Of a DNA stretch of 64,000 bases, positions 11,708 through 55,858 are shown piece by piece; within the stretch, counting starts at the first letter, position 1, and every line of letters begins with the position of its first letter. The notes below the pieces were generated by a model. The model worked only from the letters and a program-made list of their open reading frames with translations, was not told the DNA's origin and did not search any database. This DNA is from an uncultured bacterium. GTDB taxonomy: Bacteria > Babelota > Babeliae > Babelales > Babelaceae. The stretch spans positions 320,001 through 384,000 of the forward strand of contig OY970332.1 in the NCBI GenBank assembly GCA_963717435.1. Reading direction: 5' to 3'. The translations under genes and the position numbers were made by a program.

Positions 11708-12329
11708 ATTTACTAAAAAACTCGACACCCCGCTCGCCCCGAGTGTTCTTCGTAGCCTTGGCGAAGAAGAATGTATCGAGGGGTCGGCGTTGAGTGTACG
11801 GGGATTTTCTCTAATAGAATTAGTTGTTGCCATCATGCTTATTGCAATGATGGCAACACTGGTTGTTCCAAGATTTGGCGGCAGAACATATAGGGCCGAG
11901 CGGGATAAATTTGTAAATAAATTTAATACGATGGTACAGTTGGCTTATCAAAATGCTTTATCAACCGGCAAACTGCACAGAGTGTTAATTGATATAGATA
12001 AAAAAAAGATAAAGTTAGAAATCGAATCTGGCAAAGATTCCCAAAATAATTATCAATTCGCGACTATAAATATTCCGTATGTAAAATCGGAACTAAATTT
12101 TGAAGATTTCGAAATCATAAATTTATACTTAAAAAAAGATGATAAGTTAACAGGGCGTGCGCGAACCAGAGAAGCCTGGTTCTTTATTTCACCGGGTGGA
12201 ATGGCCCAAGAAGTTACGCTAAATATTAGATATTTAAAAAATCCTGAAAATATTAATACAGATTTTGCGCTTGTTTTAAACCCTTTTACTGTGCAATTTA
12301 AAACATATGATGAATTTCAAAAGCCATAA
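11688..12329 (+). CDS. gspH: minor pseudopilin GspH-like; leader contains a palindromic element
   Basis: G/FSLIEL motif, operon position. Confidence 0.75.
   Translation: MFGNSSRFTKKLDTPLAPSVLRSLGEEECIEGSALSVRGFSLIELVVAIMLIAMMATLVVPRFGGRTYRAERDKFVNKFNTMVQLAYQNALSTGKLHRVLIDIDKKKIKLEIESGKDSQNNYQFATINIPYVKSELNFEDFEIINLYLKKDDKLTGRARTREAWFFISPGGMAQEVTLNIRYLKNPENINTDFALVLNPFTVQFKTYDEFQKP
11730..11783 (+). repeat. palindromic element copy A (in gspH leader)
   Basis: CCGCTCGCCCCGAGTG-ttcttcgtagccttggcgaagaagaa-TGTATCGAGGGG. Confidence 0.9.
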
Positions 12330-12744: not shown

Positions 12745-13804
12745 GAATGCAAAAACGACCGACCCTTCGATACATTCTGCTTCGCCAAAGCTACGCAGAA
12801 CACTCAGGGCGAGCGGTCGCCTAAAATCACTTTTTGCAAAACCCGAGAATATTCTGAGTGATGCAAGTTTGGGCTTCACATTAATTGAAATAGTAATTGG
12901 AATCATGCTATCTTCGATTGTAAGTTTGGTGCTCTATAACATGCTAAATCAAACAACAAGAGTTGTTGAAAACGTAACTTCATACACAAATTTAGATAAC
13001 AAGATTGCCGTACTTTATAATCAAATTGATAAAACAATTTCTGCTGCCTTTTTGCCAAGAATAGAAGAAGTTAGAAGTACACTATCAACAGAAACTGTGA
13101 CAGTTATAAAGACAAATAAAACTGGAAAACCAGAAAACAAAGAAGAAAAAAAGCAGAAAGTCGAAAAAATATTTTATTCTGAAAACGACGGCGCAAATTT
13201 AAAGCTGCTTACATTTCTTTCAACAGGCGCAGTACGAGGCTACGATGAATCCGGTGGGAATATAACTCGCGTTGTTTATAGATTAGTAAAAGATGAACAA
13301 AATCCAGGTTTTTTTAAATTATTAATTCAGCAAAACTCTAAATTTTTAGATCTTGATATCTTAAAACCTGAAAATTCAAAAACGCGCAGCTATGAACTTG
13401 CAACAGGAATTAAATCTTTAAAAGCTGTATATTACGCAAGAGAAGAAAAACAAGAAGGCGAAAAAAATATAACAAGAACCAAGTTGCCCGACTGGGGTTC
13501 AAAAGAAATGCTAGAAAAATATAAACAAAAACTTCCAGAATTTGTTGACTTAAATGGAGTTATTTGGGACGACGTAAAAAAAAGAAATACTGAAATAAAG
13601 TTTAAATTTAATATTTATGGTTATGTAGCACCTGAGACTAATAAACCTAAAGAAGATAAAAACAAAGCGGTGCCTGCGGAACGTATACAACCATCTACCG
13701 GCAAGCAACCAGCAACACCAGCTCCTAAAATAACAGCCCAGCCTGACCCGAAGCTTGATGAAATTAAGAAAATCGCAGCAGATAATCCCAATATTTTTGG
13801 ATAA
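12731..13804 (+). CDS. gspJ: minor pseudopilin GspJ-like; leader contains a palindromic element
   Basis: G/FTLIEI motif, RVVYRL, operon position. Confidence 0.75.
   Translation: MKKFKNAKTTDPSIHSASPKLRRTLRASGRLKSLFAKPENILSDASLGFTLIEIVIGIMLSSIVSLVLYNMLNQTTRVVENVTSYTNLDNKIAVLYNQIDKTISAAFLPRIEEVRSTLSTETVTVIKTNKTGKPENKEEKKQKVEKIFYSENDGANLKLLTFLSTGAVRGYDESGGNITRVVYRLVKDEQNPGFFKLLIQQNSKFLDLDILKPENSKTRSYELATGIKSLKAVYYAREEKQEGEKNITRTKLPDWGSKEMLEKYKQKLPEFVDLNGVIWDDVKKRNTEIKFKFNIYGYVAPETNKPKEDKNKAVPAERIQPSTGKQPATPAPKITAQPDPKLDEIKKIAADNPNIFG
12763..12816 (-). repeat. palindromic element copy B (in gspJ leader)
   Basis: + strand CCCTTCGATACA-ttctgcttcgccaaagctacgcagaa-CACTCAGGGCGAGCGG. Confidence 0.9.
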
Positions 13805-27601: not shown

Positions 27602-27646
27602 CCGCTCGCCCTGAGTGAAATTTCGTAGAAATTTAGTATCGAAGGG
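27602..27646 (+). repeat. palindromic element copy C (supplies methyltransferase stop codon)
   Basis: CCGCTCGCCCTGAGTG-aaatttcgtagaaattt-AGTATCGAAGGG. Confidence 0.88.
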
Positions 27647-28406
27647 TCGGGCCATGGGTCAACCTCGCCTGAAGTACTCTTGACGGGCCACTTGCCCTGA
27701 AAGTCTCGTCATAAATTTTAACTATTTTTAGCCCGGCCCGAGAAAATAAGTCTTCAAGTTCTGCTTCTCTATACCAAGTGACAGTTATTAGTTCGCTTTC
27801 CCGTTCAATAACTTGGCCGTCAACTATAAGCTCATAGTTACAAAAACCGTCAGCAAGTTTATTTTCAAAATCATAAACATATCTTGTAGTTAACTTAATT
27901 ACCGTATGATTATCTATCCGAGCTACTCTTTCACTTCTGCTTTCATCATCAAAACCGGGGACGAAAAAATCGATCAAGAAATTGCCATTGGGCCCCATAT
28001 GGCGAGCCAAATTTTTAAGAACTTTTAAGGCACTCTCTGGGCCACAAATTAACTGGAAAGACCCTACAGCTATAGTTATGGTCGAATATTTATGTGGCAG
28101 GTTTAAATCTTCTAAATTTTGCTTATAAATACCGTAAATTTCTGGGGAGATATTTAACTCTTTAAATCTTGCATGACAACGCGCGAGCATGCTTTCAGAA
28201 TTATCCACCCCATCAACAATATAACCACGCTGAATTAACGGGATCTGCAACCTGCCTGAACCGGACATAGCCTCAAGAACCCTGCCAGGATTTTCTTCGA
28301 TAAATCGTGAATAAAAATCTACTTCTGCCTTGGGGGCATAAGCTTTAGTTGCATCATAAAATATACTACAAAGTTTACCGTATGCAGTTGATTGATCGCT
28401 ATTCAT
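27633..28406 (-). CDS. class I SAM-dependent methyltransferase
   Basis: VLEAMSGSGR, VDGVDNSESML. Confidence 0.85.
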   Translation of the reverse strand: MNSDQSTAYGKLCSIFYDATKAYAPKAEVDFYSRFIEENPGRVLEAMSGSGRLQIPLIQRGYIVDGVDNSESMLARCHARFKELNISPEIYGIYKQNLEDLNLPHKYSTITIAVGSFQLICGPESALKVLKNLARHMGPNGNFLIDFFVPGFDDESRSERVARIDNHTVIKLTTRYVYDFENKLADGFCNYELIVDGQVIERESELITVTWYREAELEDLFSRAGLKIVKIYDETFRASGPSRVLQARLTHGPTLRY

Positions 28407-28795: not shown

Positions 28796-29172
28796 GGGGG
28801 CGTAAAGGTCTCGACGTGGTAAAAATGTCGACCAGAGCATGTCGAGCTTTGTTTAAGTGCTCGTTAAAAAAATAAACAAAACAATAAGTGCAACTGCACA
28901 ACCTGTTTACTTAGCGTAAGCTAGTAAGCTTTGTTTATTTGCTTAGGCAAATAACACTTGCTAATTTAATTTGCCTATAAATTTTTTTAGCTCGTATTAC
29001 CCAAATAGGACCTTCAAGCAAGATTTACCGGATTTGTGGCTTGATTGTATACTAAGCCGGCTTGCCTGCTTACCCTGTTCTTGGGGTTGAAGACAAGTAT
29101 AAACAAGAAATAAGCATGTAGTGCTTGTCCACTGCTTTATTGCGGACATGGGTTCGATTCCCATCGCCTCCA
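28796..29172 (+). ncRNA. ssrA: tmRNA; tag (A)ATAQPVYLA at 28890..28919
   Basis: 5' GGGGGCG...TCGAC; 3' GGAC-ATGGGTTCGATTCCCAT-CGCCTCCA; G.U alanine acceptor stem; ATAAGT-GCA resume context; smpB nearby. Confidence 0.95.
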
Positions 29173-29302
29173 CATTTCGTTCTCCGAACGAAATGTGCCC
29201 TGCGAAGTTTGCCAAGCCGGAAGGCCTGGATAAACGTAGCATGGGCTATTTTTAATCAAAAATAAACCTCTTGCACATATTTGCTTCGTTCTGCGAACTA
29301 CG
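29171..29302. repeat. hairpin cluster after ssrA related to the inner module of the palindromic elements
   Basis: CACATTTCGTTC/GAACGAAATGTG perfect stem; GCGAAG...CGTAGC stem; CTTCGTTC-tgc-GAACTACG. Confidence 0.6.
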
Positions 29303-29313
29303 CGCGGCGCAGC

Positions 29314-29396
29314 CACTCTCTTTCCATCATATATTCCCCTTTAACTGCCCAAACCCCCAATTTTAGGGTATTTTACCCCCCTTCTGAATCTGTTTT
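29314..29396 (+). repeat. ~82-bp direct repeat, copy 1
   Basis: near-identical to 31684..31765; 45 bp identical (29336..29380 = 31706..31750). Confidence 0.92.
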
Positions 29397-29446
29397 AGGA
29401 GTACGCCCCACCTCAGTTCCCCTTTTTTAAGACTAATAGGGGGCTT

Positions 29447-30568
29447 TGACCTAGTTCATATACATGTGAGACTAAAATAAACTAAAATGGATCTCCAAGA
29501 AACAGTTCAATTTTTCTAAGGAGATCCATCATGATACAAACAAGTATCATTAGTAAACGATATTATCACATAAATAATATTGATGAAACTGAATATTCTA
29601 AGATTGTTTGGGAACGCAAAGAAAAGCTTGAGAAATACGAGCTACTGAGGTCAGAATGCGTTTTGGATGAGACAATATTTGATGTTTTAAATGTTTCCAG
29701 ATCAACTCTATTTCGTTGGAAAAAACAGTATAAATTACATGGTCTTGAGGGTTTAGAGAATCAAAGCAAACGGCCAAATAATGTTCGCAAGTCTACCTGG
29801 ACAAAAGAACAGGAGCAAAGAATCTATGTATTGCGTAAAAAATACAAGTTATGGGGAAAAGCAAAAATAGCTGTAATGTATGAACGCGTGTATGAAAAAA
29901 AGTTATCAGTAAGCACTGTAGGCCGAATTATCCAGAAACTGGTAAGACAAAATAGAATCAAGCCCGTAAACTTCTTGTGTAACAAAAAAATATCAAAAAA
30001 TAGAATATTCAATGGCCATGCAAAACGTTGGAAGTTAGGCATGAAATCAGGTTCTCCTGGTGAGCTAGTTCAGTTTGATCACATGACAATTAATGTTCCG
30101 GGAATAGGCTATTTAAAGCAATTTAGCGCTATTTGCCCTACAACTAAAATTGCTGTGGAAAAAGTTTATAAAGAAGCCAATAGTCGCAATGGGGCTGACT
30201 TCCTTCAGTTTGCAATAAAAGAATTCCCATTCCCAATTAAATCTGCCCAGGTTGATGGTGGAGGTGAATTTATGGCGGACTTCGAGGCTTTATGCCAAAA
30301 ACTTAACATCCCTTTATGGGTTCTTCCCCCTAAATCTCCCGAATATAATGGAAACGTTGAACGTGGCAATGGAACCTTTAAATACGAGTTTTATAGCCAG
30401 TACGACGGTCCGCCAAACCTGGAAAACCTACAAGCTTCACTTCAAGATTTTGTTGGATTCTACAACAGAATTCGGCCACATCAGGGGGTGGGGTATTTGA
30501 CCCCAAACGAGTGTTTTGAGAAACTTAAAGACAGGGAGATCTAGTCTCATATGTATTGAACCAGGACA
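29447..30568 (+). mobile_element. IS481-like insertion sequence
   Basis: imperfect 27-28 bp terminal IRs (TGACCTAGTTCATATACATGTGAGACTA / TAGTCTCATATGTATTGAACCAGGACA); GGCTT duplicated at 29442..29446 and 30569..30573. Confidence 0.9.
29531..30544 (+). CDS. DDE transposase (HTH + integrase core), IS481-like
   Basis: PGELVQFD, QVDGGGEF, NGNVER, YNRIRPHQG...LTP. Confidence 0.93.
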   Translation: MIQTSIISKRYYHINNIDETEYSKIVWERKEKLEKYELLRSECVLDETIFDVLNVSRSTLFRWKKQYKLHGLEGLENQSKRPNNVRKSTWTKEQEQRIYVLRKKYKLWGKAKIAVMYERVYEKKLSVSTVGRIIQKLVRQNRIKPVNFLCNKKISKNRIFNGHAKRWKLGMKSGSPGELVQFDHMTINVPGIGYLKQFSAICPTTKIAVEKVYKEANSRNGADFLQFAIKEFPFPIKSAQVDGGGEFMADFEALCQKLNIPLWVLPPKSPEYNGNVERGNGTFKYEFYSQYDGPPNLENLQASLQDFVGFYNRIRPHQGVGYLTPNECFEKLKDREI

Positions 30569-30622
30569 GGCTTTTGACATATAATATCTGATATTTAAAC
30601 TAGTTAATATGGAGGCTTTAAT

Positions 30623-31534
30623 ATGTTTAAATTCAAATATTTTTCACTATTTTTTATTTTAAGTTTATCAATGCAATGTCATGCAGGCTTAATTGAAAAC
30701 TTTGACAAACTGATGTCTATTACTCATTGGGGATTATTATTATCTCCAGGTTTATTATTATCAGGCTCACTACTTGAACAAGCAACTATAATTGACAGAA
30801 ACTATCCCGATGCATCTCCTGAGTTAGAAAAGTTTCTTAAAAATGAATTAAGAAAGAATAATACATCAGAAGAGCTACTAAACAGCATAAAATTTAAAAT
30901 TCATAATAGACTAGCAGCAATTGCCTCAACAGAAACAGATCAACCTCATATTATTACAATAACTAGCGCTATCCAGAAAGCATTTAATGAGGGATTATTT
31001 GGAAATTCTGAATCAAAAAATGATCAAAATGATCGAGAAGAAAAATTTTTAAATGCCAGTATTAGACATGAAGTTGCACATATTGAGCATAAAGATTTAT
31101 ATAAAAATATGACAGCGTTAGTTTTATTTCCACTTGCAGCTCATTATATATTTAAAGTTTCAACTTACCATATTCATAATGCAGTTAGCCCTCACCTAAA
31201 TTCCTTTATAAAATCTATATTAAAAATTCCTTCCGTCGTGGTTAAATTATATATAGCACGTGCTTTGTTTGTTATTTACTCCAAGCATAAAGAATATAGA
31301 GCAGACAAAAAAGCCGCTGAATCTATTACAGATAAAGAAACGTTAAATATATTTAGCAATAAATGCCTTGAAGGATATAACGAATATGAAAGAAAACATA
31401 AATTAAATCCAAAATATAGAAATAATTTATTGCGTTTTATATATGATGAAATTTATACACCAGATCTTTATCATCCAAATTATTTGCTTAGATCTGAAGT
31501 ATTTAACAATGCCGCAGAAAAAATTGTTTCTTGA
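30623..31534 (+). CDS. M48-like zinc metallopeptidase
   Basis: HEVAH, EYRAD, HP...R, hydrophobic helices. Confidence 0.7.
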   Translation: MFKFKYFSLFFILSLSMQCHAGLIENFDKLMSITHWGLLLSPGLLLSGSLLEQATIIDRNYPDASPELEKFLKNELRKNNTSEELLNSIKFKIHNRLAAIASTETDQPHIITITSAIQKAFNEGLFGNSESKNDQNDREEKFLNASIRHEVAHIEHKDLYKNMTALVLFPLAAHYIFKVSTYHIHNAVSPHLNSFIKSILKIPSVVVKLYIARALFVIYSKHKEYRADKKAAESITDKETLNIFSNKCLEGYNEYERKHKLNPKYRNNLLRFIYDEIYTPDLYHPNYLLRSEVFNNAAEKIVS

Positions 31535-31683
31535 TTTTTATAAACATTGATCTAATTTTTCTTTAAAATTACTCCACCTAAAAGTTCGACCGTGTCCACC
31601 ATAGTTCTTCTTGAACGACAGCTGAAAGTGCGACAATCTCGACCACCAGTCATTTCCCTCAGAAATACCTGGCAGGCCACTTT

Positions 31684-31765
31684 CACTCTCTTTCCATCAT
31701 ATTCCCCCCTTTAACTGCCCAAACCCCCAATTTTAGGGTATTTTACCCCCGTCTGAACCTGTTTT
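31684..31765 (+). repeat. ~82-bp direct repeat, copy 2
   Basis: matches 29314..29396. Confidence 0.92.
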
Positions 31766-47879: not shown

Positions 47880-49529
47880 TTGGAGATACTCGTGAATTCA
47901 AAGATTAAGAAATATTTTTATGACGCACCCAATTTTAAAAAATTTTTTATATTATTTCTGGTAACTTTTTTAATTAGAGGCTCTGTGTTTTATTTTTATA
48001 TACAACATGAAGAGAGATACCACCAAGCTGATAGCATGGACTACCATGCCGGGGCACTTTTTATAGCTCTAGGTCATGGCATGTATAACCCACAGGCTGA
48101 TAGGCCCATATTTTGGCGCACCCCGGGATATCCAGCTTATTTAGCAGCTTTTTATAATTTTTTTGGAATCACTGACGCAAATTTTGAGGGCAACGCAAAA
48201 GCCCAGAAAGCTTCGATTTGGGTCCAGATAATTCTAAGCTCTTTTTTGCCAATTTTAATATTTTATCTCGCGCTTATTCTTTTAGACTCTTTATTTATCG
48301 CTTGGGCTTCTGCTTGGATCTCAGTTTTTCATATTGGTTTTATACTTTCTAGCACTTATATATTAACTGAGGGTCTTGCTACTATATTTTTTGTTGCTTA
48401 TTTAATCTGTTTTTTTAGCGCGTTACGCACATCGCACCCTTCGATACTTTCTTTTTCGCTCTTTCAGAGCTCCAAAGAACACTCAGGGCGAGCGATAAAA
48501 GAACAAAATCATGGGCACGATCCCGCTCGTACTGAGTGCACGTCGCAGCCATATGGCAAGACGGGTGTATCGAAGTATAGCGGGACAAATAACTTACGTT
48601 GCCTAATTAGCGCAGCGATAGTTCTTGCGATATATACCTGGATAAGACCCATGGGACAAACACTCGCGATAGTATCTATTGTTTTATTATTGTTTTCAGC
48701 GGGTAATACCGGAAAATTAAAAAACAGCTGGAAAAAGAGAGTCTCTAATTCTGCAATATTTTTTACAATATTTTTTTTACTAATATCCCCATGGTATATT
48801 CGAAATCACAACTTAACGGGCCAATATTTCTTTTTCCCAGTATTCGGACCATACCTAACATGCTTTTGCGCCCCAAAAATACATGCAAAAGTAAATAACT
48901 TAGAACTAGCAGAAAGTCATAAAATACTAACAAGGCTTGGTGGCCATTTTACGTATCAAGCTATGTTAGAAAATCAAAATTCTAATTCACCATATTATAT
49001 TTGCCCGGAGATAGCGTGCCTGCCGGCTGCTATGCCATTAATCAAAGAGCACCCATTTTTATTTGCACGCGACTGGATAGTTGAAGTTTGCAAAACCACT
49101 TTTGATTTATATTCAAGCCAACTTGTTGCATTTGCAACAAACTGCTACAAATTCGATGCGCTTATAGAGTATCTTGATGAAAAAATTAAAGCGTGCATAT
49201 ACTCCCAGCCTCTGCCAATTTGGATGAGGATAATAGCCTGGCTAGAACTAATTTTTTCGATATTACTCTGGATCGGCATATTTTTTGGTATATTATTATT
49301 TATGCTCGTGCCACTATTTACAGGCAAACTAAAAAAGCCTGAAAATTGGGACACTGCAACTATCTGGCTCCAAACTGGGATAATATTTATAGCAAGCGTA
49401 ATAGTCACAGGTGGATTTGGATATGCGCGACTAAGATTGCCAGTAGAACCACTTATAATAATTATGTCGCTAAGTTTTTGGAGATATATTTATAGTAAAT
49501 TACAAAATCGAAAATTAATTAAATCATGA
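47880..49529 (+). CDS. GT-C (ArnT/PMT-like) membrane glycosyltransferase with palindromic-element insertion
   Basis: DSMDY, RTPGYP, ILTE, IRP, PWYIRN, RLRLP; multiple TM helices. Confidence 0.82.
   Translation: MEILVNSKIKKYFYDAPNFKKFFILFLVTFLIRGSVFYFYIQHEERYHQADSMDYHAGALFIALGHGMYNPQADRPIFWRTPGYPAYLAAFYNFFGITDANFEGNAKAQKASIWVQIILSSFLPILIFYLALILLDSLFIAWASAWISVFHIGFILSSTYILTEGLATIFFVAYLICFFSALRTSHPSILSFSLFQSSKEHSGRAIKEQNHGHDPARTECTSQPYGKTGVSKYSGTNNLRCLISAAIVLAIYTWIRPMGQTLAIVSIVLLLFSAGNTGKLKNSWKKRVSNSAIFFTIFFLLISPWYIRNHNLTGQYFFFPVFGPYLTCFCAPKIHAKVNNLELAESHKILTRLGGHFTYQAMLENQNSNSPYYICPEIACLPAAMPLIKEHPFLFARDWIVEVCKTTFDLYSSQLVAFATNCYKFDALIEYLDEKIKACIYSQPLPIWMRIIAWLELIFSILLWIGIFFGILLFMLVPLFTGKLKKPENWDTATIWLQTGIIFIASVIVTGGFGYARLRLPVEPLIIIMSLSFWRYIYSKLQNRKLIKS
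48437..48494 (-). repeat. palindromic element copy D (in-frame)
   Basis: + strand CCCTTCGATACT-ttctttttcgctctttcagagctccaaagaa-CACTCAGGGCGAGCG. Confidence 0.88.
48523..48577 (+). repeat. palindromic element copy E (in-frame)
   Basis: CCGCTCGTACTGAGTG-cacgtcgcagccatatggcaagacggg-TGTATCGAAGTA. Confidence 0.88.
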
Positions 49530-50038: not shown

Positions 50039-50454
50039 ATTTGGGGCAAATTTTGTAGCATTTCTAAAAGTTCTTTTATCTGTTCATCAGAAATTTTACC
50101 GTCTGGCCCGCCAAGCGTGCCTGTAGATAAAAACTGCGACAAACCACTTTCTTTCAAAAACTGTATTAGTTCTTCTTCATCTATATCTATATCGTCAAAA
50201 TCACTTTCTCCGTCAGCGTTATCTACTAAATCTTGAGAGTTATCACAAAGTTCACTAGAATCAACACGCCGCTCGTCCCGAGTGCCCGGCGTAGACGGGT
50301 GTATCGAGGGATCGAGATTTTTTATGCAACTGAACCCTGCTATATCTTTAATATTATTATTATTATCAGGTGTCTTATGGGTATTTAAGCCTGAAACAGA
50401 TAATATCAATAATAAAAAAAACAGTTTTTTATAGTCAAAAATAGTTATATTCAT
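50035..50454 (-). CDS. small secreted acidic hypothetical protein containing a palindromic element
   Basis: AGGAG RBS, signal peptide. Confidence 0.6.
   Translation of the reverse strand: MNITIFDYKKLFFLLLILSVSGLNTHKTPDNNNNIKDIAGFSCIKNLDPSIHPSTPGTRDERRVDSSELCDNSQDLVDNADGESDFDDIDIDEEELIQFLKESGLSQFLSTGTLGGPDGKISDEQIKELLEMLQNLPQI
50269..50311 (+). repeat. palindromic element copy F (in-frame)
   Basis: CCGCTCGTCCCGAGTG-cccggcgtagacggg-TGTATCGAGGGA. Confidence 0.88.
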
Positions 50455-51015: not shown

Positions 51016-51169
51016 AGTTGGCCCTTTTTAATAAATTTGGATAAAAATCTCTATAATAATTTATCGGCCACAATAATTTACCCCATGAAAAAAACATGCG
51101 CAATAGATAAATTTTATATTTTTGGATATTATGAGAATAACTTTATTATCCCATTTACAGTTACCTCCA

Positions 51170-51257
51170 TCCCTGCGCCGACGCCAAGGCTATGACGCAC
51201 GCGGTCGATACACTCGGCCTGCCCGGCGGAGCTTTAGCGAAGCCTGGGGACGAGCGG
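51170..51257 (-). repeat. palindromic element copy G (empty centre, two hairpins inserted in the arms)
   Basis: + strand TCCC-[hairpin]-TCGATACACTCGG-[hairpin]-GGACGAGCGG. Confidence 0.8.
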
Positions 51258-51323
51258 GGCTCTTTGTAAAAAGCATGCGCTTATAAGAGGGTGTAACGTT
51301 TTTATAACTTTTAGGATATAACT

Positions 51324-55696: not shown

Positions 55697-55750
55697 CCGC
55701 TCGTCCCGAGTGATCACCGTAACGCTAGTGAAGGTGATTGTATCGAGGGA
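55697..55750 (+). repeat. palindromic element copy H (intergenic)
   Basis: CCGCTCGTCCCGAGTG-atcaccgtaacgctagtgaaggtgat-TGTATCGAGGGA. Confidence 0.9.
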
Positions 55751-55804
55751 TGAGCATATACGCGATATATAAAATTTTTTGTTTTTGCTTGGTCATTACC
55801 GCCA

Positions 55805-55858
55805 TCCCTCGATACACCCGTCTACGCTAAAGCTACGTCGGGCACTCGGGACGAGCGG
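55805..55858 (-). repeat. palindromic element copy I (intergenic, inverted partner of H)
   Basis: + strand TCCCTCGATACA-cccgtctacgctaaagctacgtcggg-CACTCGGGACGAGCGG. Confidence 0.9.

Follow-up and report, generated by a model that had tools for sequence, protein, structure and literature searches.

The window, the whole stretch of 64,000 nucleotides analysed here, belongs to a genome that consists of a single contig of 1,198,203 bp with 34.6% G+C, and homologues of its proteins assign this genome to Dependentiae/Babeliales. It carries nine copies, A to I, of a short hairpin element, whose head motif was observed nine times in the window against 0.20 expected and whose core word TGTATCGA was observed nine times against 1.12 expected. 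Eight of these copies, all of them matches to a covariance model, are listed here with their window coordinates; the ninth, copy G, is built differently and is listed further below. P2 denotes the variable hairpin of the element.

11730..11784, plus strand: copy A, a standard element with a 26-nt P2, between two pseudopilin genes
12762..12816, minus strand: copy B, a standard element in or just ahead of a pseudopilin leader
27602..27647, plus strand: copy C, a short form with a 17-nt P2, a GTA triloop and A as the junction base
48436..48495, minus strand: copy D, inserted in frame, together with E, in a gene for a PMT-like glycosyltransferase
48523..48578, plus strand: copy E, the inverted partner of D, within the same host gene
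50269..50312, plus strand: copy F, a short form inside a 139-residue minus-strand open frame
55697..55751, plus strand: copy H, of the ATCACC-stem type, the first half of a tail-to-tail pair
55804..55858, minus strand: copy I, the second half of the H/I pair

Copies A and B fall in 58-nt arms (11730-11787 and 12759-12816) that are 91% complementary and lie 971 nt apart; these arms enclose two pseudopilin genes, which gives a composite, transposon-like layout.

The covariance model was trained on copies A, B, H and I and returned 115 matches in this 1.2-Mb genome (E ≤ 0.01), and a regular expression for filled cores found 107-108. A standard member is GC-rich and about 55 nt long, in an AT-rich host genome, and its parts follow a fixed order. 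The outer stem (P0), to which flanking bases contribute, comes first, followed by the head GCTCG, which is unpaired, and by the stem P1 of 4 bp; next is a conserved, asymmetric internal loop in which GAGTG (5' side) faces YGTATCGA (3' side), and the last part is P2. The head is present in the 107 standard copies, and P1 is fully complementary in 95 of them, with seven pair types (TCCC/GGGA in 53, CCCT/AGGG in 24, TGGT/ACCA in 10, and four rarer ones). The lengths of P2 show modes at 17 nt (15 copies) and 26 nt (33 copies). Short forms are tipped by a GNA triloop, and long forms contain a GNA/GNA internal loop that bears a mini-hairpin of 2-5 bp. GNA triloops and GNA/GNA loops are motifs typical of stable DNA hairpins.

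Within the window, the sequence observations of an earlier note on this DNA were borne out. It had described a hairpin between GAGTG and TGTATCGA in copies A, B, E, F, H and I, which was confirmed, and the four 16-nt words that it quoted for a shared inner motif in A, B, H and I are exact. Its description of F as I with 11 nt lost between two CGTAG words also holds, with one additional base difference. C and D carry AGTATCGA, with A instead of T before GTATCGA, and thus lack the TG repeat. The P2 of I varies among otherwise similar pairs elsewhere in the genome.

Elements occur in both orientations, and 16 of the 18 cases of close neighbours (≤150 nt) are inverted pairs. One pair type recurs as nine pair composites, which have an AT-rich spacer that is conserved and end in perfect inverted repeats of 16 nt; inspection of the flanks of these nine showed no visible target duplication. 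Long open frames contain 27 of the 107 copies, compared with 1293 of 2000 random windows, which indicates that the elements are depleted from genes yet tolerated there. The D and E pair is an example of such tolerance: it inserts about 46 residues in frame into its host gene, and this insertion is missing from five homologues, the closest of which is 78% identical.

Outside this genome the family pattern was found at at least 115 loci, mostly in Babeliales/Dependentiae assemblies, and some GC-rich genomes (L007, L048, L055, L080, L089, L090 and L109) also carry the element with its pairing intact. Among 41 relatives, the exact pattern occurred in seven, while a reversed-pattern control gave none; exact-pattern copies number 84 in this genome and 1-8 in the other carriers. 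A model search of 100 loci from other genomes gave 157 matches, and in an alignment of 134 distinct rows from these genomes 98.8% of the cells were paired. Double changes were found in 438 cells compared with 103 in shuffles, with none of 500 shuffles reaching 438, and both stems covary. Slid controls were far lower in every case. The alignment was fitted to the model and so favours the structure, but the margin is nonetheless large. Our search of the literature on palindromes, hairpins and repeats in Dependentiae/Babeliales found no account of these elements.

The GIY-YIG frames in this genome comprise four small ones, of which one contains a stop codon, and one of 433 residues. A single-domain GIY-YIG gene encoding 94 residues, at L131 1492-1776 and genome positions 1066108-1066389, is bracketed by two family elements, 1410-1463 (plus strand) and 1797-1851 (minus strand), with their heads outward and at about 20-30 nt from the start and stop of the gene. 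The protein matched PF01541 (E 1.3e-16) and the small GIY-YIG proteins of PDB entries 1ZG2 and 1YWL (E about 1e-14), and NCBIfam gave only a sub-threshold match, to a group I intron endonuclease model. In three element-rich genomes, model matches lay beside the genes of close homologues at five of seven loci, and no element was found at the other two. In seven further genomes they lay beside the gene at all eight loci and bracketed it on both sides at five, or at six counting one weak pair; divergent versions of the element bracket the nuclease gene in about nine other genomes. Since model matches occur in genomes that lack the strict pattern, the repeat appears to diverge along with the gene. 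Strict pattern and close homologue were poorly correlated across the 41 relatives (both in three genomes, protein only in six, pattern only in four), and in G005 and G033, which have 7-8 element copies each, no homologue was found with the 94-residue query.

Nucleases that act site-specifically on single-stranded DNA and have cognate hairpin repeats became known as late as 2025, as the Ssn enzymes and their NTS/SRM repeats (Chenal et al. 2025, PMC11893778). Ssn enzymes bind single-stranded DNA only, in a strand-specific manner, and cut it a few nt upstream of the hairpin. In the available portion of that paper, the Ssn system shares with the present one a single-domain GIY-YIG protein of about 94 residues, a gene bracketed by inverted hairpin repeats that exceed 100 per genome, oriented and non-palindromic flanks around the stem, and an enrichment in symbionts. 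Tyr7, Tyr17 and Glu64 of the 94-residue protein, counted by eye, adjoin the mutated positions that this portion gives for SsnA (Y6, Y17 and E64). The repeats differ from the Ssn repeats as presented there: the present repeat falls outside the published degenerate motif, adds a conserved asymmetric internal loop and a second, freely varying hairpin, often stands in frame in genes, and has a branched sub-type. The SRM search motif, in the degenerate form given in that portion of PMC11893778, occurred in none of the family elements and once in the whole genome, against 0-3 times in shuffles.

Our preferred reading, which we consider probable though well short of certain, is that the family consists of nuclease-linked single-stranded-DNA hairpin repeats of the Ssn kind with a new architecture, in which P2 is a variable tip and G a derived branched sub-type. 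By analogy with Ssn, a folded single DNA strand would be what the 94-residue nuclease recognises and nicks. The invariant unpaired words would serve as protein contacts, and P1 and P2 would need only to pair. In this divergent architecture the covariation is clear, and invariant unpaired words are cleanly split from freely varying stems, a split that predicts which bases the enzyme reads.

Two other explanations of the family as a whole were weighed against this reading. The element might be a structured RNA, cis-regulatory, protein-binding or ribozyme, with G as a topological variant of the fold; invariant unpaired words, strong covariation of both stems across phyla and intact pairing in a few GC-rich genomes are all what such an RNA would show. 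However, Rfam returned only the tmRNA from the whole window at gathering threshold, with no family for the elements, and in the H/I region, at E up to 10, nothing but chance-level microRNA and leader matches. Wobble pairs made up 14 of 1307 cells and were no commoner than mismatches (16). Orientation was unbiased with respect to transcription, with 18 sense and 20 antisense elements between co-directional genes and 18 intragenic elements on the same strand as the gene against 11 on the opposite strand. Moreover, copies within genes are translated in frame, the GNA triloops and GNA/GNA loops point to DNA hairpins, and RNA is not a substrate of Ssn enzymes according to the available portion of PMC11893778. 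From the wobble, orientation and in-frame data we read the family as acting at the DNA rather than the RNA level, and a structured RNA seems to us quite unlikely.

REP and BIME sequences are short imperfect palindromes with a conserved unpaired word, found mostly as inverted pairs and without target duplication, and they are thought to act as single-stranded hairpins with RAYT transposases. The present elements share the imperfect palindrome, the unpaired word, the inverted pairs and the lack of target duplication, and they could be REP/BIME-type repeats, or else MITEs, moved by a Y1/RAYT (IS200-like) or DDE transposase. The excess of inverted pairs among close neighbours, the 16-nt perfect terminal inverted repeats, the absence of visible target duplication, as with Y1 elements, and a miniature element beside a Y1 gene in one relative would suit such movement. 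But a search with PF01797 (Y1_Tnp) gave no match in this genome, and the domain was absent from three of five relatives and three of five element-rich records tested, being present in the other two of each; an element lay near only one of six Y1 loci, which leaves a Y1/RAYT partner unsupported. In addition, the sole multi-copy transposase-like ORF (three copies) has no apparent link to the elements, a quarter of the element copies are intragenic, unlike REP/BIME, and the partner gene encodes a GIY-YIG nuclease. Transposase-driven movement is very unlikely in our estimate.

Two observations concern transposase-like genes themselves. In relative G040 (L123 1974-2055), a Y1 transposase-like gene is preceded, at a distance of about 120 nt, by two miniature elements, in which the head, P1 and GAG...TCGA are retained and the loop is 4 nt; the Y1-like gene has, by eye, a phenylalanine at the usual position of the catalytic tyrosine. 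In the window, direct repeats of 67 nt, 96% alike, flank the 337-residue ORF at 29531-30544 (whole region 29314-31750); this ORF has three copies in the genome and looks by eye like an integrase-type transposase with a helix-turn-helix.

Copy G departs from the standard order. It comprises the following parts, again in window coordinates.

51167..51259, minus strand: copy G, a branched (G-type) element
51251..51255, minus strand: head word GCTCG
51247..51250, minus strand: 5' strand of P1, TCCC, which pairs with GGGA at 51170-51173
51222..51247, plus strand: left-arm hairpin
51216..51221, plus strand: left-arm prefix GGCCTG, identical to the prefix of hairpins that trail tRNA genes
51205..51215, minus strand: uninterrupted core GAGTGTATCGA
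51174..51204, minus strand: right arm, a degenerate hairpin of the kind seen in other G-type right arms

The order is thus head, P1, left hairpin, short stem, core without P2, right hairpin and P1', and the uninterrupted centre that the earlier note had reported for G is present on the minus strand as listed. That note had also placed the inner module twice in the arms; the left word is exact (plus strand, 51227-51242), whereas the right one (51181-51195) is only degenerate. The left-arm hairpin is inverted relative to its host element and matches, but for two positions, the P2 hairpin (27 nt) of the copy at genome position 438301. Folded alone, as RNA or DNA and on either strand, G was not more stable than its shuffles (z +0.5 to +1.1), and nearest-neighbour folds of the G-type copies were mutually inconsistent, so we relied on comparison of copies and not on energy. 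A promoter and terminator scan around G found no terminator, and two promoter-like sites, a number at the level expected from shuffles.

Public sequencing runs cover at most 0.14 of the window; contigs of four of these runs are short fragments, and none of them joins across F or G. A 175-nt contig of soil run X2 aligns to G (window 51174-51258) with 11 differences, which indicates a G-type copy or a relative of it in that sample.

The exact empty-core 11-mer occurs three times in the genome, and a pattern for the G layout found five copies. Three further degenerate copies, recognised by eye, have a slightly altered core and the same order of segments, and two G-type copies stand tail-to-tail with standard elements. 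The layout was absent from 260 other genomes of the phylum, where the lone match has no GC-rich hairpin, and a search of 101 genomes, this one included, gave no standard element whose P2 is only 0-8 nt long. Filled cores, by comparison, were found across the phylum and beyond. Because filled cores are general and the branched empty type occurs only in this genome among the 261 searched, the empty core is better read as derived than as an unused target. Deletion of the hairpin from TG to TG yields exactly the observed empty-core 11-mer. On these sequence comparisons G looks like a member of a branched, lineage-specific sub-type that numbers about eight copies and has a derived "empty centre". 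We infer that P2 may have been lost by slippage, as a deletion between its flanking TG words, and that two GGCCTGC-prefixed units of a second hairpin family would then have come to flank the core in inverted orientation, with prefixes that can pair.

This second family lies mainly behind tRNA genes. Under a strict definition, the genome has 69 GNA/GNA hairpins compared with 5-9 in shuffles, and 51 of the 69 are P2. The solitary GC-rich ones bear a GGCCYGC prefix and stand directly after tRNA genes; the stem of such a trailer hairpin starts in the encoded CCA of the tRNA and ends in TGG, followed by CRGGCC. The strict trailer word follows 11 of the 35 tRNA genes, and a hairpin of this kind follows about 18 of the 35 by eye. 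Examples in this genome, all outside the window, are the following.

L135, about 1327-1435: tRNA-trailer hairpin
L132, 1242-1345: tRNA-trailer hairpin
L133, 1419-1452: tRNA-trailer hairpin

Downstream of trailer hairpins, at a distance of 50-150 nt, are three small GIY-YIG frames that belong to a second type and span 79-82 residues; a stop codon interrupts one of the three, and frames of this type are found at L132 1501-1740 and L133 1501-1749. The arms of G are two trailer-type units in inverted arrangement, the left one with its GGCCTG prefix on the plus strand and the right one on the minus strand, and around the core of the remaining G-type copies 3-6 bp can form between the two prefixes, as judged by eye. 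As its arms are of the trailer type, G combines parts of both families.

The behaviour of P2 was followed across the genome. The 77 distinct P2 sequences have 113 placements, of which 109 lie between core words, two are register artefacts and two are left arms of G-type copies; none lies outside an element. The base that precedes GTATCGA is T in 94, A in 9 and C in 4 of the 107 copies in this genome, and T in 85, C in 37 and A in 9 of 131 copies in other genomes. This variable junction base fits a conserved G-Y pair that closes P2 better than a target duplication of TG, and the duplication that the earlier note had seen around the insert is not a universal feature of the junction. Whole elements are nested inside the P2 of other elements at five places. 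In one nested composite with four copies at unrelated loci, one copy differs only in the P2 of the inner element, and in the nine pair composites the P2 of the second element varies while the remainder is kept; such swaps have sharp borders in otherwise identical composites. The copy at genome position 780674 has a chimeric P2 whose halves are unable to pair. One hairpin, CCCGGC...GCCTGG, occurs once as P2, four times as a forward and twice as a reverse left arm, once as a right arm and twice in decayed contexts, and a 30-nt hairpin that resembles the right arm of two G-type copies is inserted at one shared point of P2 in two copies.

We propose that P2 is an integral, fast-changing tip of the element and not a separate transposon. 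Its diversity could arise by slippage between CGNAG repeats, which would turn long forms into short ones, by exchange between copies through recombination or template switching across the conserved core, and by palindrome-templated mutation. Recombination or template switching across the core would account for all these movements of units without a separate transposon.

The earlier note had offered another model, a two-tier system in which a mobile inner mini-hairpin inserts at the core TG and duplicates it, so that G would be an unfilled core with the module in its arms. Several facts speak in its favour: a single hairpin type serves as P2, as left arm (either way round) and as right arm; composites that are identical in all else differ by a sharply bordered replacement of P2; the 30-nt hairpin sits at the same P2 point in two copies and is like two G-type right arms; the 16-nt GNA/GNA word tips some tRNA-trailer hairpins that have quite different stems; and TG flanks P2 in 94 of 107 copies. 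Yet the genome count gives three empty cores, 107-108 filled cores and no solo P2, related hairpins standing alone mainly after tRNA genes. An empty standard core is absent from the 101 genomes, of 261 genomes searched only this one has the empty-core type, and 46 of the 131 copies in other genomes have C or A as the junction base. GNA-tipped P2 is present in the family across many genomes and is therefore ancestral, and deletion of a hairpin between flanking TG words produces an identical empty core. Hairpin units are nonetheless shuffled between positions and orientations, and nesting is real. We regard this model as unlikely; the observation in the earlier note is confirmed and its interpretation partly supported. 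Part of the idea survives in a different form in the mixed make-up of G. A one-off local rearrangement, by which G would have no wider meaning, is scarcely credible. Confinement of the G-type to this genome and the degenerate right arm of G would fit it, but it is refuted by the copy counts, with three exact empty cores and five more copies in the same segment order at unrelated loci, and with two G-type copies placed tail-to-tail with standard elements like ordinary family members. That G is more than a single accident is shown by five pattern matches and three degenerate copies, all in this genome.

Beyond our preferred reading of P2 as the tip of a nuclease-linked repeat, a more speculative extension, which we hold to be doubtful but worth stating, is that the genome uses two hairpin "alphabets", each tied to its own tiny GIY-YIG nuclease. 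The 94-residue enzyme would belong to the element with GCTCG, GAGTG and GTATCGA, and the enzymes of 79-82 residues to the GGCCTGC-prefixed hairpins at the CCA ends of about half the tRNA genes. Nicks in single-stranded DNA could then drive template switching that shuffles hairpin units between scaffolds and yields chimeras like G. If true, this would parallel, in a bacterium and with the enzymes identified, the way in which GC clusters of yeast mitochondria merge and are shuffled. Those clusters (Wu and Hao 2015, PMC4478555), in the available portion of the article, resemble the present elements: they are GC-rich hairpins within AT-rich DNA, their hairpin units merge and are shuffled, their copies recombine, and a dinucleotide stands at the junctions. 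They differ in belonging to an organelle, in their unrelated sequences and in that no associated nuclease gene is reported in that portion.

The palindromic elements of Rickettsia offer another parallel. As described in the available portion of PMC10969869, they are small palindromes in a reduced, AT-rich intracellular bacterium that insert in frame into unrelated protein genes without destroying them. The present elements are shorter (about 45-60 against about 100-150 nt), belong to another phylum and are linked to a nuclease. Here, too, repeats have spread in frame into essential genes of a reduced genome.

The genome bears on the role of Ssn-type systems outside Neisseria, and its short, long, nested and branched forms are natural variants that could reveal the tolerance of the enzyme. 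What seems to be an "empty target site" can be a form derived by deletion, which matters wherever junction repeats alone are taken to imply transposition. This work newly contributes the branched sub-type, counts relevant to the two-tier model and the tie between the arms of G and the tRNA-trailer hairpins. Elsewhere in the window, three tandem 54-nt repeats (7914-8075) are 72-76% alike and probably coding, and a one-piece tmRNA gene lies at 28796-29175 (149 bits).
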